From a virus, in IMG/VR virus record IMGVR_UViG_3300031952_000010, positions 1-64,000 of that record: a stretch of 64,000 bases of DNA; one strand, written 5' to 3'. Position 1 is the stretch's first letter. Each line of letters begins with the position of its first letter. The translations under genes and the position numbers were made by a program. The notes beneath the pieces are model-generated. The model was not told the DNA's origin and did no database searches. It saw only the letters and a list, made by a program, of their open reading frames with translations. This document shows positions 13,289 to 63,664 of this stretch, one piece after another.

Positions 13289-14248
13289 ATGGAAGTTATT
13301 ATAACAAAAAAACAATTTGATGAGCTATGTGTCTCTGAGGTGTGTATCTCTGAGTTGAAGACTCTATTGAATAATGTTGGTACTAAAAACACTTTCCGTA
13401 AACCTATTGATTTGATGTTAGACAGACATAAAATACCATTGGACAAAGGTTCAAAACAATTCAAAAAAGATAGAACTATCTTAAAACAATACTTTAATTT
13501 TTCTGGTGAAGAAATTGATAAATTAATGGATATTAAAATGATTTATGATGCTAACGGTAAATGGACGCCAATTAACAAATTAAACACCAATTACAGTGAT
13601 TTATCGGTCCTTGTGACTGATATGTTAGTTGGGGAGGGAAAATGTATCTGTAAGATAGTTGAGGACCTTAAAAAGAAGGATAATACCGTTATTTTAGATT
13701 TGGCAAATAGAATGACAAAAGAACCTGAACATTTTTACCAAACTTATCTTAAAGGTAATTTTGACAAATATATTGAGAACAACAGGAGAAACACATTGAA
13801 GGGTAATGAAACTGAATTGTTTGTTGTTGATGAATTAGTTAAGTTAGGTTATAAAATCATTTTCATTGCTGATGAAGGTAGCCCAATCGATACCAAGTTA
13901 AGTGTTGATATTATTATGGAAAAAGATGGGAAGGCGTTTAAGTTCCAAGTTAAATCTATTGGTAGTATTACTGAAATAAATGAAACTCCTTGTGACATTT
14001 CAAATCCTGGTATAAAAGAACCAGGTGGATTTAAAGTCTTCAAAAAAAATAGAATTAATTTTAATGATTTATATATTGATTATTTAGTATTTGTTGCCCC
14101 AAAAAATAAAATGTTGGTGATGAAAAGATACCAACCTATTACTATCGACAGTATTAAACCATTGGTTTGTTCTGCAAAACCAATTAATGAATTCCCAAAA
14201 AATAATACCTATATTGACCCTGAATCTGTGGTTTATCAAAATTTTTAA
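13289..14248 (+). CDS. putative PD-(D/E)XK nuclease-fold protein
   Basis: GNETE...VDIIMEKDG...FQVKS pattern. Confidence 0.5.
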   Translation: MEVIITKKQFDELCVSEVCISELKTLLNNVGTKNTFRKPIDLMLDRHKIPLDKGSKQFKKDRTILKQYFNFSGEEIDKLMDIKMIYDANGKWTPINKLNTNYSDLSVLVTDMLVGEGKCICKIVEDLKKKDNTVILDLANRMTKEPEHFYQTYLKGNFDKYIENNRRNTLKGNETELFVVDELVKLGYKIIFIADEGSPIDTKLSVDIIMEKDGKAFKFQVKSIGSITEINETPCDISNPGIKEPGGFKVFKKNRINFNDLYIDYLVFVAPKNKMLVMKRYQPITIDSIKPLVCSAKPINEFPKNNTYIDPESVVYQNF

Positions 14249-18614: not shown

Positions 18615-19802
18615 ATGAACAATATAGATAAAAAATACCAAGAGTTACTTCAAGACATTTTAGGTAACGGTATAAAGAAAAAAGACAGAACGGGTACAGG
18701 TACCATTTCAGTATTTGGTAGACAAATCCGTCATAAAATGAGTGAAGGGTTTCCATTACTTACAACTAAAAAAATGCCATTCAAAACAATCACAACAGAA
18801 TTGTTATGGTTCCTTCAAGGCAACACAAACATCAAATATCTTGTTGATAACAATTGTCATATTTGGGATGGTGATGCGTATAAGAATTATCTACATAAAG
18901 TTATTCGTGATAAAGACATTCTACATTATCTAAAATCATATTCAGTAGACGCCAATGGTGTGCCAACTATTGAACCTTATTCTCAAGAAGAATTCATCAA
19001 CAAAATTAAAACAGATGATAAGTTTGCTAAGAAGTGGGGTGAGTTAGGTCCAATTTATGGTAAGCAATGGAGAAGTTGGGGTAGAAAAAATGTAGTAAAT
19101 TATGATTTAGAAAATGTAAAAAGTTCTGACCAAGTTAAGGTTATGGACTTAATTCGTAATGATGGTGATTATAGTAAATATGATGTTAAAGTAACGTACC
19201 AAAATAATTCAATAGACCAAATCGCAAATCTAATCAACGAACTTAAAACAAATCCAGACTCAAGACGATTAATGGTTAATGCTTGGAATGTGGGTGATTT
19301 GGATAAAATGACTTTACCACCTTGTCATTATGGATTTCAAGTTTATACAAGAGAATTAAAGAAGTTAGAACGAATAAACATTGCTATTGAAAGAAAACTA
19401 ACACATGAAACGGCTCATTTAACCAAAGACTTTGATTACCAAAAATGGTGTGATGAACAAAATATCCCAACCAGAGCAATCTCTTTAATGTTTAATATGA
19501 GAAGTACCGACGTAGGATTGGGGTTGAGTTTCAATTTATCATCATACGGATTATTATTGATGATGATTGCTAAACAAGTTAATATGGTTCCTGACGAATT
19601 GATTTACAATGGCGGAGACGTTCATTTATATCTTAATCACATTGAACCGATTAAAGAACAATTAATAAGAGAACCATATGAATTACCTATTCTAAAATTA
19701 TCCGATAGAGTCGTTAATGATATTTCGGAATATACTTTGGATGATATTAAACTTGAAGGTTACCAGTCACATCCGACAATAAAATTACCACTTTCTAATT
19801 GA
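18615..19802 (+). CDS. thyA: thymidylate synthase with insertions
   Basis: DRTGTGT, FPLLTTKK, ELLWFL, LPPCH, RSTD, GDVHLYLNH. Confidence 0.95.
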   Translation: MNNIDKKYQELLQDILGNGIKKKDRTGTGTISVFGRQIRHKMSEGFPLLTTKKMPFKTITTELLWFLQGNTNIKYLVDNNCHIWDGDAYKNYLHKVIRDKDILHYLKSYSVDANGVPTIEPYSQEEFINKIKTDDKFAKKWGELGPIYGKQWRSWGRKNVVNYDLENVKSSDQVKVMDLIRNDGDYSKYDVKVTYQNNSIDQIANLINELKTNPDSRRLMVNAWNVGDLDKMTLPPCHYGFQVYTRELKKLERINIAIERKLTHETAHLTKDFDYQKWCDEQNIPTRAISLMFNMRSTDVGLGLSFNLSSYGLLLMMIAKQVNMVPDELIYNGGDVHLYLNHIEPIKEQLIREPYELPILKLSDRVVNDISEYTLDDIKLEGYQSHPTIKLPLSN

Positions 19803-26869: not shown

Positions 26870-28738
26870 TTAGGAACCAACTTCCTCGAATTCAACATCA
26901 GATGCGTCCATCCCACCGTCATTACTTTCTTGATTTACACTTTCATATAAATCTTGACTAATCTTTTGGAACTTCTGTGTTAACTCTTCCATGATTCGTT
27001 TAACTGAATCAATTTCTTTTTTACCGTGAGCTTCTTTTAATTCAGTAATACTTGCGGTAATTTCAGTTTTATCTTCCTCAGATATTTTATCACCTAAATC
27101 TTCTAATGATTTATTCATTTGGAAAATCATGTTGTCAGCTGAATTTAAAGTATCAACATCTTCTTTAATTTTCTTATCAGATTCGGCATTTTGTTCTGCC
27201 TCAAATTTCATCTTCTCTATTTCTTCCTTAGATAGACCTGAAGATGACTCAATTCTGATAGATTGTTTTTTACTTGTAGCTTTATCAACCGCAGATACGT
27301 TAATAATACCATTAGCGTCAATATCAAAGATAACCTCAATTTGAGGAATACCTCTCATTGCTGGTGGTAAACCATCTAAATGGAATCTACCAATAGTTCT
27401 ATTGTCTTTCGCCATTGCGCGTTCACCTTGTAATACATGAATCTCCACAGTTGGTTGGTTGTCTACCGCCGTTGAGAATACCTGTGATTTTTTGGTTGGG
27501 ATGGTTGTATTAGACTCAATTAATTTTGTTAAAATTCCACCCATGGTTTCAATACCTAATGACAATGGTGTTACATCTAATAGTAATACATCCTTAACAT
27601 CTCCCGCCAATACACCACCTTGAATTGCCGCTCCTAAAGCAACAACCTCATCAGGATTAACACCTTTTGATGGTTCTTTACCAAAGAATTCTTTAACCGC
27701 GTTTTGGATTGCTGGAATACGAGTAGTACCACCAACTAAAATAATTTCATCAATTTCACCGATAGTAATATTCGCATTTGACATTGCGGTTATACAAGGT
27801 TTAATTGTTCGTTTAATTAATGAATCTGCCAATTGTTCAAATTTGGCACGAGATAAAGAAGTTACTAAGTGTTTAGGTCCTGTTGAGTCGGCACTTAAAT
27901 ACGGTAAGTTAATTTCTGTTTGAAGTGATGATGATAACTCAACTTTCGCCTTTTCTGCCGCCTCACGTAAACGTTGTAACGCCATTGAGTCTTTAGTAAC
28001 ATCAAGACCGCCTGTTGATTTTTTAAATTCATCAACCATGAAATCAACAATCACTTGGTCAAAGTCATCCCCACCTAAGTGAGTGTCTCCGTCAGTTGAT
28101 AAAACCTCAAATACACCATCCCCTAAGTCAAGAACAGATACATCGTGAGTTCCACCACCACAGTCAAATACAACAATTTTCATATCTTTAGACATTTTGT
28201 CTAAACCATAAGCTAATGCCGCTGCGGTAGGTTCGTTAATAATACGTTTAACAGTTAGACCTGCAATTTCTCCAGCTTCTTTGGTTGCTTGACGTTGTGC
28301 GTCATTAAAATATGCTGGTACAGTAATAACCGCTTCTGTAACACTCTCCCCTAAATAATCTTCAGCGGTTTGTTTCATTTTTTGTAAAACAACTGCGGAA
28401 ATTTCTTGTGGTGAGTAATGTCTATCATCAATACTTACTCTTGGAACGTTCCCATCTCCTTTTACAACTGAGTATGGAACTTTAGACGTTTCGTTTTTAA
28501 CCTCATCATAACTTGCACCCATGAAACGTTTAATTGATGAAATTGTTTTGGTTGGGTTTGTAACCGCTTGTCTTTTTGCTGGGTCACCAATTTTTCTTTC
28601 CCCACCATTAATAAATGCCACGATTGAGGGTGTGGTTCTTTTCCCTTCACTGTTCGTAATGACAACAGGTTCACTTCCTTCCATGACTGCCACACATGAA
28701 TTTGTTGTACCTAAGTCGATACCAATAATTTTTCCCAT
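26870..28738 (-). CDS. dnaK: chaperone DnaK (Hsp70)
   Basis: [35 protein letters not shown]. Confidence 0.97.
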
Positions 28739-28854
28739 AGTTAAATAATATTTTGTGTAATTATATAGAATAAAATTTATGGAGTCAAGCTCCAAAGTAG
28801 AATACTATATAATTGTACCAAAACAAAAAAACTGACAAATTGTCAGTTTTATAA

Positions 28855-55399: not shown

Positions 55400-55957
55400 A
55401 TGGAAAGGTATTCGGAAAAAATAATTACCTTAAGGAAAGAAGGTAAAACCTATAAAGAAATTAAAAACATTATAGGGTGTGCAATGTCAACAATATCGTA
55501 TCATTGTACATTAAATGGTTTAGGGGATAATAACCAAAAGGTAACTGAGAACGAAATCATCGAACTTCAAAAAATGTATGACGAATTTGGTTCACTTAAA
55601 AAAGTTGCTAAAATAACGGGAAGGGCTTTTGATACCGTTCAAAAATATGTTAAGACAAAACAAAAAGTTAAAACTGTAACATCTTCTGAATCAGTTATTT
55701 TATGGAGAAAAAGGACTAAAATTAAATTGATTGAATATAAAGGAGGTAAATGTGAAATTTGTGGATATGATAAATGTAATAGAGCCTTACAATTTCATCA
55801 TAAAAATCCATTAGAAAAGGATTTTTCAATATCGGGTAGAAGTTTATCATTTGACAGATTAAAAGACGAGGTTGATAAATGTATGTTAGTTTGTTCTAAT
55901 TGTCATTGTGAAATACACGATAATTTAATAACGATAAATAGGTTGATTAGGGAATGA
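55400..55957 (+). CDS. HTH + HNH homing endonuclease
   Basis: N-terminal HTH-like segments; CEICGY...LQFHH...CSNCHCEIH. Confidence 0.85.
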   Translation: MERYSEKIITLRKEGKTYKEIKNIIGCAMSTISYHCTLNGLGDNNQKVTENEIIELQKMYDEFGSLKKVAKITGRAFDTVQKYVKTKQKVKTVTSSESVILWRKRTKIKLIEYKGGKCEICGYDKCNRALQFHHKNPLEKDFSISGRSLSFDRLKDEVDKCMLVCSNCHCEIHDNLITINRLIRE

Positions 55958-56158: not shown

Positions 56159-56212
56159 CAATAAAAAAAGGGGAATAACTTCCCCTCTTTTCTTTAATTT
56201 GGTTGTTATTAA

Positions 56213-56377
56213 TTATTTTTTTTTAGAAACAATTGACCACACACCACCTGCAAGTGTAACCGCTGCTCCGATAAGTTCTTGTACTGATGAATCAGTTGCA
56301 AGACCTTTCATAATCAGGATACCACCTACGAAAGTAAGTGTGTGTCTAACGATACCTAGGATTTGTTCTTTAGTCAT
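56213..56377 (-). CDS. small two-TM holin-like protein (54 aa)
   Basis: MTKEQILGIVRHTLTFVGGILIMKG...GGVWSIVSKKK, read manually. Confidence 0.7.
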   Translation of the reverse strand: MTKEQILGIVRHTLTFVGGILIMKGLATDSSVQELIGAAVTLAGGVWSIVSKKK

Positions 56378-56433
56378 TTTAATGTTGATTAAAGGTTTAT
56401 GCCAGTCTATAAGTATCGGAGAAATAGGTAAAC

Positions 56434-56707: not shown

Positions 56708-57069
56708 CAAAAAATGTTTGGAGAATTAAATAATTTGCCGTACATTTGTAATATAGAAGTAAGGGGGGTAGGTAGTTAGTGGGTTGGTGACCTACTCCCC
56801 TGACGAAAGAGTTCTTTGAATAAAATGTTGGTGGATGGTAAGAAACGGTAAACTCGTAAAGTGCATTAACCTGTTGATATGAAATGGTGAAACGAGAGTC
56901 CATATCAGCTACTCATCACAATAAAAATATTGATAATGGTTTTCCCCATTCAACGAAGGTCGACTCTTCAGAATGGAATCGGAATTCATCACCCTTTGCT
57001 GAGGCCTCATTAAAACTCAGGAAGCAATTAAGATTGGAGCGAGACGGGTACTCCATCATTATTATACTT

Positions 57070-57142: not shown

Positions 57143-57216
57143 CGGAGTCCTGAAATAACAGGATGCCCCCACTCCCATATGGCAGCCAGTCCATTAAGCT
57201 GGTGAAGGGGGTAAAT

Positions 57217-57321
57217 AGTCAAGTGGACGTAATGCGGGATGGTCCCAAGTCCCCAACTCTAACGAGGTAAGGTAGTCTAATCCGTCTTGAACGGTATTCG
57301 GTTCGAGTCCGACCTTGATTA
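57217..57321 (+). ncRNA. tRNA-like RNA with acceptor and T arms but no canonical anticodon arm
   Basis: AGTCAAG/CTTGATT; TTCGG-TTCGAGT-CCGAC. Confidence 0.55.
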
Positions 57322-57674: not shown

Positions 57675-57697
57675 CAAAACAATTAGAAAAAAAACAT

Positions 57698-57901
57698 ATG
57701 ACAGACAAGTTAAAAGAGTTGTTAGAGACATCTCAAATTGGGGAACCTGAAATCGTTGATTTAATTCATTCGTATTATAAATTAGTGACCGCTGAATTAT
57801 TCACACAAGAAGAATTTGATACCGTATTAGAAAGATTAGGTATTACACAAAACGGGAACGTTTTTATTTTCAACGAGAACATAACTTATACTTTTAACTA
57901 A
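57698..57901 (+). CDS. hypothetical protein within the tRNA array
   Basis: [13 protein letters not shown]...; 3' part of the tracked ORF. Confidence 0.6.
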
Positions 57902-57904
57902 AAT

Positions 57905-58111: not shown

Positions 58112-59506
58112 ATGAGTTACAAAAAATTTTTAATAGCGGAATCCGAGAAAAAGAACATTAGAGAAATGTACGGTTTACTAACCGAACAGTATTTCAAACC
58201 ACCAAACGGTGGTGAAGGTCAAGTGGTAAATAAATATCCTGCGGGTTACTACTCCTTAAGTGGAACTGATAAGGCGGGTAACGTATATGACAATACAATC
58301 AATTTACAAAAAATTATTGACAATGCCAAAGAGTTTTTAACAACCAATAAAGGTTTTATTCCAAGAGTTGTAATAAACGCGGGAGAATCAATTATCCCTA
58401 ACTACGACACTGAAGGGGGTACTGGTGTTAAAAACTCAGGATGGTTATCTGAAAAAAGAAAAAATAAGATTTCTGAATATGTCAAAAATCAATTAAAAGA
58501 TTTAGTTAGTAAAAAATTAATATCAAAAGAACCTGAGGTTATTCTATATTTTGATGAAGCTAAAACATTAACGGTACCGTCAGGTGGTTGGGAGGGTTAT
58601 CGAACATGGAAAAGAAGTTCTGAAGCTGAAAAGGTTAATAACCCTAATAATGCCGAGTACACCAAATTAAAAACAGGATACGATAATGACCAATTCACCA
58701 AAATAAATTTTAAAATTGTTCCTGATTTAGGCCCAAACCAATGTTCATTTAATGTCAAAATTGGTGTGCATTACGATGATTTAGATATTGGTCATAGATG
58801 TAATAAGGCGAGATTCCAAATATTGGCTAATGGTGTTCCGTTAACAACTGGTGCGGGCTCAACCTGTGGAAATGGTTTATCGTATGCGGACATGAATAAC
58901 GGTGGTGGTAGTTTAGATTGTAAATCAGGCGACATTGGTGGTAAAAGAATGAATTACTTCCAACTAAATAGTAAGTCTATTGTGGACAAAATAATGGCGG
59001 CGTCTCCCGACAAAAACTCAATAAAAATATCCATGAAATGTACATCAACAGGATTTGATGATGCTTCAGGTAGATGTCACCAAGATGTACCACATATTAC
59101 GATTCATAACACTGATGGTAAACAAACGGTTAACACCTACCCTAAAGTTAACGATAAAGATTTAATTACAATTGACAAGTGCGGTAATTTAATTACAGGT
59201 GGTGGTGGTGTCGCAACAAAAAGTAAAGATGCTGGTGGTACTGCAACAACTACAGTTACTACAACAAAACCTACAGGTCAAAAATTAAATTTTGCGTCAC
59301 CAGCAACAGGAACGTTAACTTCTGACCAAGCGATTCTTAATAAAATTAGTGATGGCTCAATTAAGAAAAACGCGGATAATACTTATTCAGTATTAAAAAC
59401 ATTTAATTATAATGGTGTGTCTTATAGAATTAATGATACAATTGTTAAAATATTACCTAAAGGTAGTGTAGTAACTACGACAACGACAACTATTAAACCA
59501 AAATAA
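58112..59506 (+). CDS. leader-motif protein (KFLIAESEKKNIREMYGLLTEQ)
   Basis: N-terminus resembles 21284; Thr-rich linkers. Confidence 0.75.
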   Translation: MSYKKFLIAESEKKNIREMYGLLTEQYFKPPNGGEGQVVNKYPAGYYSLSGTDKAGNVYDNTINLQKIIDNAKEFLTTNKGFIPRVVINAGESIIPNYDTEGGTGVKNSGWLSEKRKNKISEYVKNQLKDLVSKKLISKEPEVILYFDEAKTLTVPSGGWEGYRTWKRSSEAEKVNNPNNAEYTKLKTGYDNDQFTKINFKIVPDLGPNQCSFNVKIGVHYDDLDIGHRCNKARFQILANGVPLTTGAGSTCGNGLSYADMNNGGGSLDCKSGDIGGKRMNYFQLNSKSIVDKIMAASPDKNSIKISMKCTSTGFDDASGRCHQDVPHITIHNTDGKQTVNTYPKVNDKDLITIDKCGNLITGGGGVATKSKDAGGTATTTVTTTKPTGQKLNFASPATGTLTSDQAILNKISDGSIKKNADNTYSVLKTFNYNGVSYRINDTIVKILPKGSVVTTTTTTIKPK

Positions 59507-59531
59507 AAATGGGGGTCAGTGACCCCCAATT

Positions 59532-59927
59532 CTATTCGATATTACCGTAGTAGTGGTAAGAATTTTTACCATCATCAACAATAACTGTCATTGATGTGTT
59601 ATCAACACATTGTGATGTGAAATAAGTCACAACACAGGTTTTGTTAGATTTCAATTCCACAGAGTAAAAAGAATTTACCCCAGGATTTGATTCTTTTGTA
59701 CCTGAGAATTTGTATACCATCTCAGTACCTTCACTTTTAATTACTAAAGAATCTTTACCAATTAAAACGGTTGGTGAACTTAACAATACTGAATCAACCC
59801 ATGTTGATGTACTATCAGTGATTGCGTAACCAATCTCTAAAGATTTAACTTTTACTTTATAGATGTCTTGTGATAAACAAACTAATGTTGTTAAAGACAA
59901 TAACGATGTTAGGATTAATTTTTTCAT
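59532..59927 (-). CDS. secreted protein
   Basis: signal peptide MKKLILTSLL...SQ. Confidence 0.7.
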   Translation of the reverse strand: MKKLILTSLLSLTTLVCLSQDIYKVKVKSLEIGYAITDSTSTWVDSVLLSSPTVLIGKDSLVIKSEGTEMVYKFSGTKESNPGVNSFYSVELKSNKTCVVTYFTSQCVDNTSMTVIVDDGKNSYHYYGNIE

Positions 59928-60057
59928 ACAACAAATATAACGCTCTTATTTGACTAAAACAAATTTTTTTATTATTTTCTTTCTAAAAATATTTTTTAAA
60001 AAGTTTTGGCAGTCTCAAAATTTATTGTATCTTTGTATTCACAAAAACGATATAACT

Positions 60058-60507
60058 ATGACAACTACCAACACAATCATCGACGTAACAACAGGAACAT
60101 TAGCAGGTGACGTATTCTACGGAAACTTTAAAACTCGTGTTAAAAATAAAGTAATTAATGTTATGGTTTCAAACCACTTGAAAGACATTAACAAAGAATA
60201 TGAATTCCGTATCGCAGGGAAATGTCAAGCAGGATTCATCAGTATCCACGATACTAAAGGAACCGCTGGTGAAGTTATCCGTGGATACCAAAAAAACTCT
60301 TTGGTTAATATCCAAGCAAAAAATGAGTTCGGTCATTGGATGAATGTTTACACAACTAAAGGTGGTAAATGGTACTCAATCGACAAAGGTTTCTTGGAAA
60401 CTATTACAGTTGGTACTATGAGAGAATCTTTCCCTGATATGTGCGATATGCAAATTTGGGAAAGAATGGGAGCTAAGACTTGGGCTGATAAGGCTTTCAC
60501 AAAATAA
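60058..60507 (+). CDS. hypothetical protein
   Basis: ATG downstream of TATCTTTG. Confidence 0.7.
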   Translation: MTTTNTIIDVTTGTLAGDVFYGNFKTRVKNKVINVMVSNHLKDINKEYEFRIAGKCQAGFISIHDTKGTAGEVIRGYQKNSLVNIQAKNEFGHWMNVYTTKGGKWYSIDKGFLETITVGTMRESFPDMCDMQIWERMGAKTWADKAFTK

Positions 60508-60523
60508 GAAGTTTTTACCAATA

Positions 60524-60554
60524 TTTGACTTTTTATGAAAGTCGTATATATTTA
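60524..60554 (+). promoter_or_regulatory. promoter candidate for leader 2
   Basis: TTTG-N19-TATATTTA. Confidence 0.55.
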
Positions 60555-60577
60555 ATAGAAAATACATAATACTGCAA

Positions 60578-60649
60578 ATGAAAAATTTAAATATCATACT
60601 ATTAGGCGGGACTGAGGCGGATACGTTAACTCGGACGGCGATGGTATGA
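60578..60649 (+). CDS. leader peptide 2 (23 aa) of tRNA array 2
   Basis: MKNLNIILLGGTEADTLTRTAMV with many G/C-ending codons. Confidence 0.8.
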   Translation: MKNLNIILLGGTEADTLTRTAMV

Positions 60650-60671
60650 TGTTTTGTCAACAATAACAATC

Positions 60672-60703
60672 AGAACCCATCTCCAAAAAAGATGGGTTTT
60701 TTT
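60672..60703 (+). terminator. attenuator terminator 2
   Basis: AACCCATCT-ccaaaaa-AGATGGGTT + T-run. Confidence 0.85.
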
Positions 60704-60756
60704 ATGTCTAAAAGTTGGTAATTAAATAAATTGTTGTATCTTTGTGAAACAATAAA

Positions 60757-60784
60757 GGGGATGAAACCCCGAGTTCTTTGACAT
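60757..60784 (+). promoter_or_regulatory. boxB-like hairpin + boxA-like element
   Basis: GGGG-atgaaa-CCCC then GAGTTCTTTGACAT. Confidence 0.65.
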
Positions 60785-60806
60785 GTTGGTTTGAAAAAAA
60801 AATTAA

Positions 60807-60878
60807 GGTCTATTCGTTCATCGGCTAGGATGCTACCCTGTCACGGTAGTGAGGAGGGTTCGATTCCCTCATGGACCG
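60807..60878 (+). tRNA. tRNA-Asp(GUC)
   Basis: CTACC-ctGTCac-GGTAG. Confidence 0.92.
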
Positions 60879-60889
60879 CAAACAATAAG

Positions 60890-60965
60890 GGGGGTGCATG
60901 TACCAAGGCATTGGCGATGTCGATTTGCAATCAACGTGAGGTGGGTTCGATTCCCATCATCTCCA
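60890..60965 (+). tRNA. tRNA-Ala(UGC)
   Basis: ttTGCaa loop; G3:U70 identity pair; atypical D-arm. Confidence 0.8.
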
Positions 60966-60978
60966 CACAAAAATATAT

Positions 60979-61050
60979 CGTGGGATAGAGCAGTGGTAGC
61001 TCGCAAGGCTCATAACCTTGAGGTCGGGGGTTCGAATCCCTCTCCCGCAA
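60979..61050 (+). tRNA. tRNA-Met(CAU), initiator-like
   Basis: C1xA72 mismatch; CAAGG-ctCATaa-CCTTG. Confidence 0.88.
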
Positions 61051-61059
61051 CTAATACAT

Positions 61060-61133
61060 CGTGGGTTAGACTGGAGGTGGTTCCAGCTTGGTCTCATAAG
61101 CCAAAGACGGGGGTTCGAGTCCCTCACCCGCAA
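61060..61133 (+). tRNA. tRNA-Met(CAU), second copy with C1xA72
   Basis: TTGGT-ctCATaa-GCCAA. Confidence 0.8.
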
Positions 61134-61211
61134 CAAATGTGTCTCAATTCCCTGAAGAAATTCAAAGTTGAGGTCTCGGTAGACAGAACGCGTCTGATTC
61201 TACCCAAATAC

Positions 61212-61284
61212 GCGAATATCGTATAGTGGTTTATTACTCCATCCTTCCAAGTTGGAGACGACAGTTCGATTCTGTCTATTCGCT
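61212..61284 (+). tRNA. tRNA-Gly(UCC)
   Basis: ctTCCaa loop; U73. Confidence 0.9.
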
Positions 61285-61291
61285 CAAAAAT

Positions 61292-61372
61292 GCTTAAGTG
61301 GTGGAATGGTATACACGTATGTCTTAGGAACATATGTCTTATGACGTGAGGGTTCGAGTCCCTCCTTAAGTA
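61292..61372 (+). tRNA. tRNA-Leu(UAG)
   Basis: TATGT-ctTAGga-ACATA. Confidence 0.92.
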
Positions 61373-61377
61373 CAAAA

Positions 61378-61937
61378 CCAAGGTAATGTCAGTAGGATGA
61401 GGCCGCAATCGGATTCCTTTGAACAACGCGTGAGGGGCGGCTTTCACGATGTGGCTGATAACCCGAGGTTTTAAGACCCCACGAGTAACGGAGATATCCG
61501 ACCGTTATGGAGTGTGAACCTGACTTGAAGGCTTCAAGGCTATGGGGGAGGCAACACAAACAAACACGGATTCCCCATTATGGATTAAGGGGGTAAGGGG
61601 CTTTAATTAGTCGTAATACAATCCACAAGTTGTAAGAACACTGAACAATCTTACAATACACACTCTGACTTCCGAGTGAGACTCACCACGTAACTTTGGG
61701 GGTAGGGTGAAGATGTTCTGAGGATAACACTGAACGCTGAACAGTAAAAACCATGACGCATTTGATTGGTAGAATAGGTTAAGACGGAGTGTGAAAGTAG
61801 AAACCCCCGATGGATGGTTACTAAGCTCTTTAACTCAAAAGGGATAGTCGGGAGGGATATATAAGCTTAAGGGAAACTATAAGTAAAAACTAGGTCAGTT
61901 CCGATTTAACCCCTATCGGTACGAGTGTCTGACCTTA
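61378..61937 (+). ncRNA. large structured ncRNA candidate (~560 nt)
   Basis: GC-elevated spacer between tRNAs with no tracked + strand ORF and many stems. Confidence 0.65.
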
Positions 61938-61939
61938 AT

Positions 61940-62012
61940 GCCTCCTTAGCTCAGTTGGCAGAGCACTTGTTTTGTAAACAAGATGTCGTTGGTTCGAATC
62001 CGACAGGAGGCT
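61940..62012 (+). tRNA. tRNA-Thr(UGU)
   Basis: CTTGT-ttTGTaa-ACAAG. Confidence 0.92.
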
Positions 62013-62038
62013 CAATGAGTAAGAGATACTCATCAAAT

Positions 62039-62124
62039 GCTCGGGTGGTGTAATTGGTAGCCACGCAAGACTTAAAATCTTGTGGACTGTAAGGTCCGTG
62101 CGGGTTCGATTCCCGCCCCGAGTA
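62039..62124 (+). tRNA. tRNA-Leu(UAA)
   Basis: CAAGA-ctTAAaa-TCTTG. Confidence 0.93.
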
Positions 62125-62126
62125 CT

Positions 62127-62324
62127 AAAACAAATCTTACATAAGACGGATTAGCACCGTTGAAAGGAACCTTGGCTTCACCGCGGAGTAATTACCGTAA
62201 CAGAAGTTCTAAATGCCCCAAGGTACTATGTAATGGACCCTGCTCTGATGTGCACGTCAACAGGTGATGGGGAACAAACCATCGGTCAAATCTAAACCTA
62301 CGGTGAGCGTAGAAGATTTGTTTT
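62127..62324 (+). ncRNA. structured ncRNA candidate (~200 nt)
   Basis: 12-bp closing stem AAAACAAATCTT/AAGATTTGTTTT with internal stems. Confidence 0.6.
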
Positions 62325-62329
62325 TATTT

Positions 62330-62404
62330 GGTCCCATCGTCTAACGGTTAGGACATCAGGTTTTCATCCTGAAAATCGGGGTTCGATTCCCCGTGGGACT
62401 ACCA
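62330..62404 (+). tRNA. tRNA-Glu(UUC)
   Basis: TCAGG-ttTTCat-CCTGA; encoded CCA. Confidence 0.93.
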
Positions 62405-62425
62405 AATATTCTTCATTTATATAAA

Positions 62426-62499
62426 GGACTTGTAGCTCAGTTGGTTAGAGCACCGCACTCATAATGCGTAGGTCCATGGTTCGAGTCCATGCTGGTCCA
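62426..62499 (+). tRNA. tRNA with CAU anticodon, probably Ile2 (lysidine, reads AUA)
   Basis: GG-start, TAGCTCAGTTGGTTAGAGC D-arm, ctCATaa loop; identity inferred. Confidence 0.75.
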
Positions 62500-62551
62500 C
62501 TTTTTTCAAATTATACATTGCCAGTCCAAATTTTTTTTGTATATTTGTTAT

Positions 62552-63052
62552 ATGAAAAATCAACTACCATATTGTAACACATCTGAAGCGATTAAAGGAT
62601 ATGATAATTCTCCTATTGCAAAATCCGAAACAAATGATTGTGTTGTTCGTGCGATAGCATCAGCATTTGACCTTGAATACGATAGAGCTCATAAATTTGT
62701 TGCCGACACATTTGGTCGTAAACCAAGACAAGGTACTTTTGGATTTGGTCCTGGTATGAATAAGATTGCCGAAGAAAGAACTCGTATTGGTAGAAAATGT
62801 GTCAAACCTATGGGTACTAAAGCAGAACACAGTTCTTTCCGTTCACTATCTTACGATGTTAAAGTTAAAGGAGTTAAAACTTCACGACAAATGACTGTGG
62901 GTACTTTCATTTCAAAATACCCTTTAGGTACTTATGTAGTTACAGTTAAACGTCACGCCTTCACTATTAAAGATGGTGTGGTTATCGGTAATCGTGAAGA
63001 TGCTATTCAGAAAAGAAAAATCATGTTATTGGCTTGGAGAGTTGGTTCATAA
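62552..63052 (+). CDS. conserved phage hypothetical protein
   Basis: NDCVVRAIA...HAFTIKDGVVI. Confidence 0.75.
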   Translation: MKNQLPYCNTSEAIKGYDNSPIAKSETNDCVVRAIASAFDLEYDRAHKFVADTFGRKPRQGTFGFGPGMNKIAEERTRIGRKCVKPMGTKAEHSSFRSLSYDVKVKGVKTSRQMTVGTFISKYPLGTYVVTVKRHAFTIKDGVVIGNREDAIQKRKIMLLAWRVGS

Positions 63053-63076
63053 TATATAACCCATATATTTATCAGT

Positions 63077-63664
63077 ATGTCAGATAGTATTATAAATTTC
63101 TTAAAGAAACAGGGAGATATTTTTAGTTCCGCTAAATATTTTGGTGGTATAGATAAATTACGTGAGATTGGTAAGACTAATCCTAAAATTATGGATATGA
63201 TAACTAAATCATCTTATGGTTATCTGGAATTTCAGGCGGGTGATAGGCCAAGACAAACTAAGACCTATAAATTTAATTTCTATGTATTAGATTATGATAT
63301 GGAGGACGATATGGGTGGTGGTGATTACAACCACGCTTATTTAGCAATTGACTTAATTGTTGATTACCCAAATTTAACAGATGAAGAAATTTTAAGAATT
63401 GGTCAATGGGCTGCTGAGTATTGTGAGGATGGTCGTTGTGACTATAACATTTCAAACAAAATCTTTGAAGATTCTTTGATTATGTCAGACGTTAAAAAAA
63501 TTAACGGTAAAGATGTCCCATGGGTATCAGGTTCTTTATTAAACAACCAATCAGATATCGTTCCCGATGAAGAAGTTGAAGAATTAATTAAGAAAAGCGA
63601 GAATGGTGGTACTGTTAAAGAATCCGTTATACGAATAAAAAAATTACTTAAAGTTGATTTATAG
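63077..63664 (+). CDS. hypothetical protein
   Basis: TATTTAT upstream; C-terminal VKESVIRIKKLL. Confidence 0.7.
   Translation: MSDSIINFLKKQGDIFSSAKYFGGIDKLREIGKTNPKIMDMITKSSYGYLEFQAGDRPRQTKTYKFNFYVLDYDMEDDMGGGDYNHAYLAIDLIVDYPNLTDEEILRIGQWAAEYCEDGRCDYNISNKIFEDSLIMSDVKKINGKDVPWVSGSLLNNQSDIVPDEEVEELIKKSENGGTVKESVIRIKKLLKVDL

Follow-up and report, generated by a model that had tools for sequence, protein, structure and literature searches.

Large intricate RNAs without an assigned function are rare in bacteria and phages, the known examples being OLE, GOLLD, ROOL, HEARO, raiA and a few others. To our knowledge, each solved member of this kind has revealed an unexpected architecture, such as RNA-only nanocages. 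Two of them, ROOL and GOLLD, are encoded by phages near tRNA islands and assemble into nanocages without protein, and "tertiary" pairs that covariation supported in them turned out to be intermolecular (bioRxiv 10.1101/2024.12.08.627333). We describe here an RNA encoded in the 566-nt spacer between a tRNA-Leu and a tRNA-Thr gene (61374-61939, + strand) of a virus record from IMG/VR, IMGVR_UViG_3300031952_000010, a 91.5-kb contig estimated to be 31% complete whose first 64 kb form the stretch analysed (the window). The spacer almost certainly holds a real, undescribed family of structured RNA, and its product is very probably a stable RNA that acts in trans. Taken as a whole, with most weight on the identity claims, the statement toward which we lean is that 61374-61939 encodes a noncoding RNA that is stable, highly structured and active in trans. 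By sequence and fold the RNA is a new class, while in kind it is one more of the few large ornate RNAs that phages carry in tRNA islands. Its surroundings are as follows.

61292-61373, + strand: tRNA-Leu(tag), the upstream neighbour (ARAGORN; Rfam tRNA model, 58 bits)
61374-61471, + strand: 5' leader of 97 nt, lineage-specific, aligned by blastn or nhmmer only in the near-identical contigs L031 and L032
61472-61936, + strand: conserved core of ~465 nt, beginning at AAGACCCCACGA, as defined from the first six homologues
61940-62013, + strand: tRNA-Thr(tgt), the downstream neighbour (ARAGORN; Rfam tRNA model, 69.7 bits)

These gene calls agree with the initial annotation, made from the letters of the window alone, which had placed an ornate RNA of about 560 nt between the same two tRNAs, and its description of the spacer as GC-elevated also holds (41-52% GC, against roughly 22-39% in the flanking coding DNA). 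The two tRNAs belong to 27 that ARAGORN finds between 53199 and 62500, every one on the + strand. No described RNA family accounts for the spacer. At gathering scores, Rfam 15 recognises only tRNAs and one freshwater-1 RNA in the window, none of them in the spacer. With permissive filters at E<=10 over 61100-62400, the spacer is likewise empty of GOLLD, ROOL, RNase P, group I and group II introns, 6S, OLE and HEARO; the small self-cleaver and Y RNA models find nothing in it at that threshold, the 6S model (RF00013) is unmatched, and the sole match to transfer-messenger RNA (tmRNA, RF00023) is an 8.5-bit fragment lying on a tRNA outside the spacer. Whole-locus Rfam scans of ten homologous loci gave only tRNAs, GOLLD, one tmRNA and freshwater-1, with no match at the position of the new RNA. 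The initial annotation had proposed a large RNA resembling ROOL and GOLLD in size and setting, assigned it to no family and named ROOL, GOLLD, the group I intron, RNase P and tmRNA as the models to compare; these scans, together with the covariation and RNA-library data below, support that proposal. A literature search found no description of this RNA family.

GOLLD (RF02032) is, with ROOL, the nearest functional analogue. It is a large, pseudoknot-rich phage RNA, typically near tRNA genes and first found in lake metagenomes, and both it and the new RNA consist of a conserved core with variable modules. However, there is no sequence or model similarity between them, the spacer stays below the 150-bit cut-off for GOLLD membership, the new RNA measures ~465 nt against ~800 nt for GOLLD, and its helix plan is a different one. 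The phage-borne setting near tRNAs is present here as in GOLLD, but it is common to several unrelated RNAs and does not establish membership. The genome under study in fact carries a GOLLD of its own at 73534-73943, outside the window; it follows the new RNA at a distance of 11.6 kb, is likewise on the + strand and matches the model over its full length with 320 bits. A hidden Markov model (HMM) of the new family finds nothing in the GOLLD region or elsewhere in the genome at E<=10; the new RNA is therefore neither one half of GOLLD nor its relative, and its gene is single-copy. Of 50 other carrier records, mostly fragments, 28 contain GOLLD as well; among the four carriers rated complete, two have it. 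In L009 and L087, where one scan held both RNAs, GOLLD lies 5-6 kb from the new RNA on the same strand.

ROOL (RF03087) is similar in being ~500-600 nt long with multiple pseudoknots, in its phage or prophage origin, in its frequent position by tRNA islands and in having no linked protein. In contrast to the new family, which comes from freshwater jumbo phages, ROOL is known from rumen and Lactobacillales settings, and its model matches neither the spacer at E<=10 nor any of the ten homologous loci at gathering score. RNase P RNA (RF00010/RF00011) shares a comparable size (~350-450 nt), long-range pseudoknots, highly conserved joining strands and a tie to tRNA precursors, yet RF00010, RF00011, RF00373 and RF00009 are all unmatched at E<=10 and the universal P4 motifs were not seen in the consensus. 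Group I and group II introns (RF00028, RF00029 and relatives) do not match at E<=10 either, and both flanking tRNAs are complete. The freshwater-1 RNA (RF02979) is an orphan motif of freshwater metagenomes that sits in the same tRNA array as the new RNA, but it is a sequence-unrelated, 62-nt two-hairpin motif and a separate element 300 nt downstream. Its copy in the window (62229-62290, + strand, 84.2 bits, full length) occupies the 204-nt spacer between tRNA-Leu(taa) and tRNA-Glu and is covered by an RNA-library contig at 62145-62284 from the run called X5 below; the motif recurs in L009 (3348-3409).

The fold is established by comparison among homologues. The first homologous loci were fetched via a neighbouring protein and via the freshwater-1 motif and yielded six homologues, 83-99% identical across the core. 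Exact conserved 19-20-mers and then a degenerate 20-of-29 motif matched 36, 39 and 66 IMG/VR contigs, the last number being that of the other contigs matching the degenerate core motif. The same motif had no match in 185,579 prokaryote genomes, one per species, in an exact-pattern scan that divergent copies could escape; the spacer had none in 50,697 GenBank phage records with blastn in distant mode, and megablast of the surrounding 12 kb matched only tRNA pieces. The four carrier records rated complete (100%) measure 269-304 kb, and these lengths mark the window's record as a jumbo-phage fragment; the family is so far seen only in uncultured freshwater jumbo phages. The 51 distinct full-length homologues share 59-100% identity in pairs (median 72%), and their cores range from 400 to 533 nt (median 457).

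For 38 distinct sequences, RNAalifold gave 80 pairs, 39 of them with compensatory changes. This model was corrected by a mutual-information (MI/APC) scan and a diagonal scan of the 51 full-length sequences, which exposed pairings that cross the nested helices, and the divergent members L126-L128 aided the correction. The final model comprises 19 helices and 98 pairs and was scored on a standard MAFFT alignment made without regard to structure. Standard pairs fill 97.5% of 4906 cells, against 83.7 ± 0.3% in shuffles and 37-46% when the partners are slid by 1-3 columns; both partners have changed in 61 pairs, compared with 41 ± 2 for the shuffles and 15-27 for the slid controls; and the covariation score is 0.424 against 0.176 in shuffles, with none of 500 shuffles reaching any of the observed values. 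Four of the 19 helices are covarying pseudoknots (PK1 to PK4), as judged from the alignment, with double changes in 5 of 5 pairs of PK1, 4 of 4 of PK2, 2 of 4 of PK4 and 1 of 3 of PK3, and two of them, PK1 and PK2, tie the 3' hairpin into the fold. About 45% of the core columns are invariant or nearly so, and variation in length is restricted to two sites with discrete optional modules, as in structured RNAs. A long-range helix of the RNAalifold model (columns 137-156 with 370-389) was rejected, since it had no double changes and L126, L127 and L128 show a local hairpin (P9) and a 5' helix (P1) instead; numerous short "helices" of G-runs with C-runs from the diagonal scan were dropped as G-U-tolerant noise. 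The parts of the model, all on the + strand, are these.

61472-61557, + strand: 5' domain, with P1, P2, P3, PK3 and an invariant candidate pairing
61477-81/61543-47, + strand: P1, one compensatory CG to UA change, in L126
61486-91/61502-07, + strand: P2, 4 pairs with double changes
61519-23/61534-39, + strand: P3, 2 pairs with double changes
61531-33 with 61550-52, + strand: PK3, from the P3 loop; pair 61531:61552 occurs as GC, UA, AU and GU
61512-15 with 61554-57, + strand: the invariant candidate pairing, GUGU with ACAC, which never varies and hence can give no covariation signal
61558-61571, + strand: variable linker, 12-15 nt in the window, insertion site of an optional hairpin
61572-61726, + strand: central domain, with P5 to P9, PK4 and long invariant joining strands
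61572-76/61589-93, + strand: P5, from the covariation model
61599-602/61609-12, + strand: P6, 3 pairs with double changes, loop UUAA invariant
61629-37/61649-57, + strand: P7, 5 pairs with double changes
61661-65/61674-78, + strand: P8, from the covariation model
61681-87/61698-703, + strand: P9, 4 pairs with double changes, loop ACGUAACUUU nearly invariant
61643-46 with 61715-18, + strand: PK4, from the P7 loop, with a GC/AU switch in two pairs
P5 loop with 61620-25, + strand: invariant complementary pair, UGGAUU with AAUCCA
P9 loop with 61816-21, + strand: invariant complementary pair, GUAAC(U) with GGUUAC
61727-31/61788-92, + strand: P10, 4 pairs with double changes, closing an optional ~55-nt domain (61727-61792)
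61797-99/61858-60 and 61804-10/61848-55, + strand: P11, enclosing P12; its second part, P11b, has double changes in 6 of 7 pairs and is 100% paired
61826-31/61838-43, + strand: P12, double changes in 6 of 6 pairs, 100% paired, its loop being the 5' strand of PK1
within 61793-61860, + strand: invariant strand GGAUGGUUACUA of the P11/P12 region
61861-61891, + strand: linker with the 5' strand of PK2, from the MI/APC scan
61870-74 with 61911-14, + strand: PK2, linker with the terminal loop of P13, double changes in 4 of 4 pairs, 89% paired
61892-61936, + strand: P13, the two-part 3' hairpin, outer 61892-98/61930-36 (double changes in 7 of 7 pairs) and inner 61901-05/61915-19
61833-37 with 61922-26, + strand: PK1, P12 loop with the internal 3' strand of P13, double changes in 5 of 5 pairs, 98.8% paired

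Homologues carry PK1 as GAAUC/GAUUC, ACUC/GAGU or CUCUC/GAGAG. The register of PK2 is 61871-74 by alignment column, while the window's own pairing is AGGG (61870-73) with CCCU (61911-14). None of the three invariant segment pairs (GUGU/ACAC, GUAAC/GUUAC and UGGAUU/AAUCCA) shows any variation across the homologues. The linker before P5 measures 12-15 nt in 32 homologues, 54 nt in one and 87-91 nt in 18, which reflects an optional hairpin of ~40 nt in the one and ~75 nt in the 18; the ~55-nt interior of P10 is swapped for a 7-nt loop in 10 of the 51. The P2 loop is partly self-complementary, with versions GAUAUC, AGUACU, GGUACU or AAGUACUU among the homologues, and palindromes of at least 6 nt occur there in 45% of sequences against 22% of shuffles, although one subfamily has none. 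Within the loop, 42 of 51 sequences have a canonical inner pair 61494:61497, which switches between AU and GC. Together, these observations give a weak hint that the P2 loop is a symmetric kissing loop.

Of the eight stems that the initial annotation had named, covariation recovers three: TAACGG/CCGTTA is P2, TTGTAAGA/TCTTACAA is P7 and AGGTCAG/CTGACCT is the outer part of P13. Four others had the wrong register or partner. For CTTGAAG/CTTCAAG the register is off, covariation favouring CCUGA with UC-AGG, and the loop GAAGGCU pairs elsewhere; ATGGGG/CCCCAT is replaced by UGGGG pairing with a 5' CCCCA and the CCCC of UUCCCC with a downstream GGGG; TTAAGACCCC/GGGGCTTTAA finds no support in the alignment; and neither does the long-range CACACTC/GAGTGTG, whose CACUC pairs locally with GAGUG at 61674-61678. 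The eighth, GCCGC/GCGGC, lies in the 97-nt leader, which is conserved only in two near-identical contigs, so that no covariation can be read; folded by itself, the leader has a z-score of -1.66.

The sequence does not behave as a gene for a protein. The longest open reading frame (ORF) that touches the spacer but overlaps no tRNA gene has 56 amino acids (aa; genetic code table 11) and lies on the minus strand. The + strand is purine-rich, and minus-strand stretches free of stops reach 118 codons in some homologues. These stretches shift frame and lack conserved starts, no reading frame is conserved among the homologues, and 1-nt indels in the conserved core break them. The locus thus shows what is generally expected of a structured noncoding RNA, namely compensatory changes in excess of controls and a reading frame that is not conserved.

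The sequence is also present in RNA libraries. Nineteen metatranscriptome runs contain 55-93% of the 31-mers sampled from the core; the studies behind them number at least 17 and deal with lake water, freshwater, estuary and sediment. For four of these runs, each from a different study, the contigs were placed on the window at 59500-63500, and each run had one whole contig confined to the spacer (within 61388-61925) with 0-2 differences.

Run X1: 497 nt, at 61429-61925, 0 differences
Run X2: 472 nt, at 61388-61859, 0 differences
Run X3: 481 nt, at 61394-61874, 1 difference
Run X5: 495 nt, at 61395-61875, 2 differences

These contigs take in part of the lineage-specific leader, and three of them begin at 61388, 61394 and 61395, which hints weakly at best at where the RNA starts. 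The flanking coding DNA (59532-60507 and 62489-63500) is almost uncovered in the four runs, which we do not count as evidence against carry-over of DNA. Where the initial annotation had named the lack of covariation and of a stable transcript as findings that would speak against an RNA, 61 pairs change on both sides and the sequence appears in RNA libraries.

The gene of the new RNA always sits within a tRNA array, and in every locus where tRNAs were found, each of them (as many as 28 in a locus) is oriented as the new RNA is. The neighbours themselves vary from phage to phage, with Ser-tga, Leu-tag, Arg-tct, Glu, Pro or Met upstream and Asp, Phe, Ile, Thr, Glu, Met or Pro downstream, and the gene has therefore moved about inside the arrays. 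Several cores begin 0-5 nt past the 3' end of a tRNA or stop 0-5 nt ahead of the next one. A scan of the window for promoters found no sigma-70-like site within the leader, the nearest promoter-like site lying, together with a terminator, at 60525-60700, upstream of the same tRNA block. Since the cores abut tRNA ends and no promoter-like site stands directly upstream, the proposal of the initial annotation that the RNA is released by tRNA processing is plausible, and we regard it as somewhat the better bet. In place of the 97-nt leader, eleven homologous loci (L009, L066, L074, L081, L083, L087, L088, L091, L095, L100 and L106) have another conserved leader of ~63 nt, ending AGCATACGTCATACTYTA, which in L081, L088 and L100 exactly bridges the distance to tRNA-Ser(tga). 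This shorter leader may belong to the RNA as an optional 5' module, or form a small element of its own.

Near-every loop of the model is engaged in long-range Watson-Crick contact and variation is limited to two peripheral modules, which points to a compact particle acting in trans. In this phage, the RNA would be transcribed with, or next to, the tRNAs; processing of the 3' end of tRNA-Leu would set the 5' end of the precursor, and an RNase P cut at the 5' end of tRNA-Thr would release the 3' end. The 3' hairpin P13 would be primarily structural, with its loop serving PK2 and its internal strand serving PK1, and, once locked by the two pseudoknots, it could cap the 3' end and shield it from exonucleases. 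The particle, whose architecture might be RNA-only or RNA-protein and possibly that of a homo-oligomer, would then act in infection as GOLLD and ROOL do, tied to the tRNA and translation programme of the phage. By analogy, a self-assembling scaffold like those two RNAs is a tentative option that we would not count on. Because covariation is blind to whether a pairing is made within or between molecules, PK1 and PK2 could be bridges between molecules, a possible parallel to the ROOL nanocage, and the partly self-complementary P2 loop hints weakly the same way. Carried to its end, this idea would make the RNA a third class of giant ornate RNA in phages, unrelated to the other two, in which PK1, PK2 and perhaps the P2 loop and the UUAA loop of P6 bridge a protein-free homo-oligomer that works with GOLLD and the tRNAs in the takeover of translation in freshwater jumbo phages, a proposal that we hold to be doubtful in this full form.

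Several observations weigh against the reading as a stable, trans-acting RNA of a new family, or against parts of it. In single-sequence thermodynamics, the minimum free energy is -148.5 kcal/mol, while dinucleotide shuffles give -149.3 ± 7.3 (z = 0.11), and the "many stems" seen in one sequence by the initial annotation are therefore no more than chance would give, so that structure rests on comparison. The RNA-library contigs carry no information on strand, ends or level, and the processing sites are therefore inferred, as is the function of the RNA. In 34 of the 51 homologues, a T-run follows P13, often with a tRNA right behind, and there the RNA may be a transcription unit of its own. The ~45% of near-invariant columns exceed what a mere scaffold would seem to need and would suit a ribozyme, or an RNA with a specific binding partner, just as well. 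As to distribution, the RNA occurs in only 1 of 49 related viral records reached via other anchors, this one being already a carrier contig, and in none of the five among them rated at least 90% complete; given this patchiness and the two of four complete carriers without GOLLD, the gene is an accessory one with no obligate link to GOLLD. PMC10690425 reports 10,006 unnamed candidate RNAs, and this family might already be one of them.

The invariant columns also bear on two other functions for an RNA of this fold. One is that of a decoy or sponge for protein, resembling 6S RNA, Y RNAs, or OLE and its protein partners, by which a host factor is sequestered or re-targeted; this factor could be the ribosome, RNA polymerase, a ribonuclease, or an anticodon nuclease or another defence directed at tRNAs. 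The long invariant single-stranded segments and loops (ACGUAACUUU, GGAUGGUUACUA, AAUCCACAAGU and CUAUGGGGGAGG) suggest selection on sequence and not on pairing alone, but several invariant segments are mutually complementary (GUAAC/GUUAC, UGGAUU/AAUCCA) and so may make internal tertiary contacts. Phages are thought to carry tRNA genes partly against tRNA-directed host responses; the position of the RNA among such genes would suit a decoy, as would a patchy accessory distribution, which is typical of counter-defence genes. There is, however, no linked protein gene, the flanks vary by phage and the neighbouring ORFs have no informative Pfam or PHROG family, nor does Rfam give a match to 6S, Y RNA or OLE, and we consider a decoy unlikely. 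The other function is that of a ribozyme, which might process the polycistronic tRNA precursors of the phage or its own ends. RNase P RNA and large ribozymes have a similar size, multiple pseudoknots and very conserved joining strands, all of which the new RNA recalls, and the tRNA arrays that host it require many cleavages. Yet related jumbo phages with similar arrays lack the RNA, so that processing of the array does not need it; RNase P (bacterial A and B, archaeal and nuclear), group I, group II and small self-cleaver models all stay unmatched at E<=10; P4-type GAAAGUCC...ACAGAA motifs were not seen on inspection; and, both flanking tRNAs being complete, the RNA is not an intron. We judge a ribozyme distinctly improbable.

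The end of the element raises the question of whether it acts in cis, as a leader or attenuator of the downstream tRNAs with the 3' hairpin as a regulated terminator, which would extend the co-regulation proposed in the initial annotation. A terminator-like T-run of at least 5 nt stands at or just past the 3' strand of P13 in the same 34 homologues, often with a tRNA directly after, and pseudoknots do contact this hairpin. What they engage, however, is its loop and internal strand and not its stem, with which neither PK1 nor PK2 competes; there is thus no alternation of terminator and antiterminator, and P13 would therefore not be a switchable terminator. The copy in the window has no T-run, a terminator scan finds no terminator there and tRNA-Thr begins 3 nt after P13. 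With downstream genes that vary by phage, a fully conserved 465-nt fold that far exceeds any known attenuator and recovery of the element as contigs of its own in RNA libraries, we give an attenuator very little credence. Even less can be said for an element that is not functional as RNA, such as one conserved as DNA, what is left of an intron or mobile element, or a gene for a small protein on one strand or the other. Its position shuffles within the arrays, a gene for an HNH homing endonuclease lies in the same array (55400-55957) and the minus-strand stretches reach 118 codons in some homologues. But 61 pairs with compensatory changes are the signature of selection on RNA pairing, the frames are unconserved with 1-nt indels in the core, there are no terminal repeats, target duplications or group I/II matches, and the sequence is present in RNA libraries, which makes this explanation barely credible.

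Read as a stable structured RNA, the family adds a well-supported member to the large ornate RNAs, with 19 helices that include four covarying pseudoknots, additional complementary loops that are invariant, optional modules and presence in lake metatranscriptomes of many studies. Its frequent co-presence with GOLLD and the shared tRNA islands offer a natural system for asking what such RNAs do in jumbo phages, and ~465 nt is a tractable size for cryo-electron microscopy.

Other features of these loci may be noted. The ORFs next to the new RNA belong to no informative Pfam or PHROG family, and further off there are only an HNH, a glycosyltransferase and a metallopeptidase-like ORF. The HNH homing-endonuclease ORF mentioned above (55400-55957, + strand, 185 aa; PHROG 2255, E 5e-26) lies between tRNA-Asn and tRNA-Tyr. 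Elsewhere in the window there are a thymidylate synthase gene (18615-19802) and a gene for a DnaK/Hsp70-like protein of 641 aa (26870-28795, - strand), the latter 63% identical to ORFs of the published 635-735-kb huge-phage records LR745206 and LR756501-3. The first tRNA block has four more spacers of 176-360 nt without a long ORF or Rfam match (56160-56433, 56709-57069, 57144-57319 and 57676-57904, + strand), and these could harbour additional small RNAs or leaders. The 228-nt spacer 57676-57904 occupies the place, directly after tRNA-Ser(tga), where L033 and L034 have the new RNA.

Among the other carriers, the T-run of the new RNA is immediately followed in L009, L066, L074, L083, L112 and others by a conserved sequence that starts GGTCAGGTGGCGGAATGGTAGACG. 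ARAGORN recognises this sequence in some cases and not in others, assigning it odd anticodons; a tRNA that is unusual or interrupted, or an element resembling a tRNA, may lie here. In L101, an ARAGORN tRNA of amber-suppressor type with anticodon CUA (labelled Pyl) ends 3 nt ahead of the core, which hints that some carrier phages may use TAG as sense; the genes of the window look standard in table 11. L009 also carries a phage-borne tmRNA (13561-13958, - strand; Rfam 98.7 bits, full length, with which ARAGORN agrees), and on this contig the tmRNA, the new RNA, GOLLD and freshwater-1 all lie within 14.7 kb.

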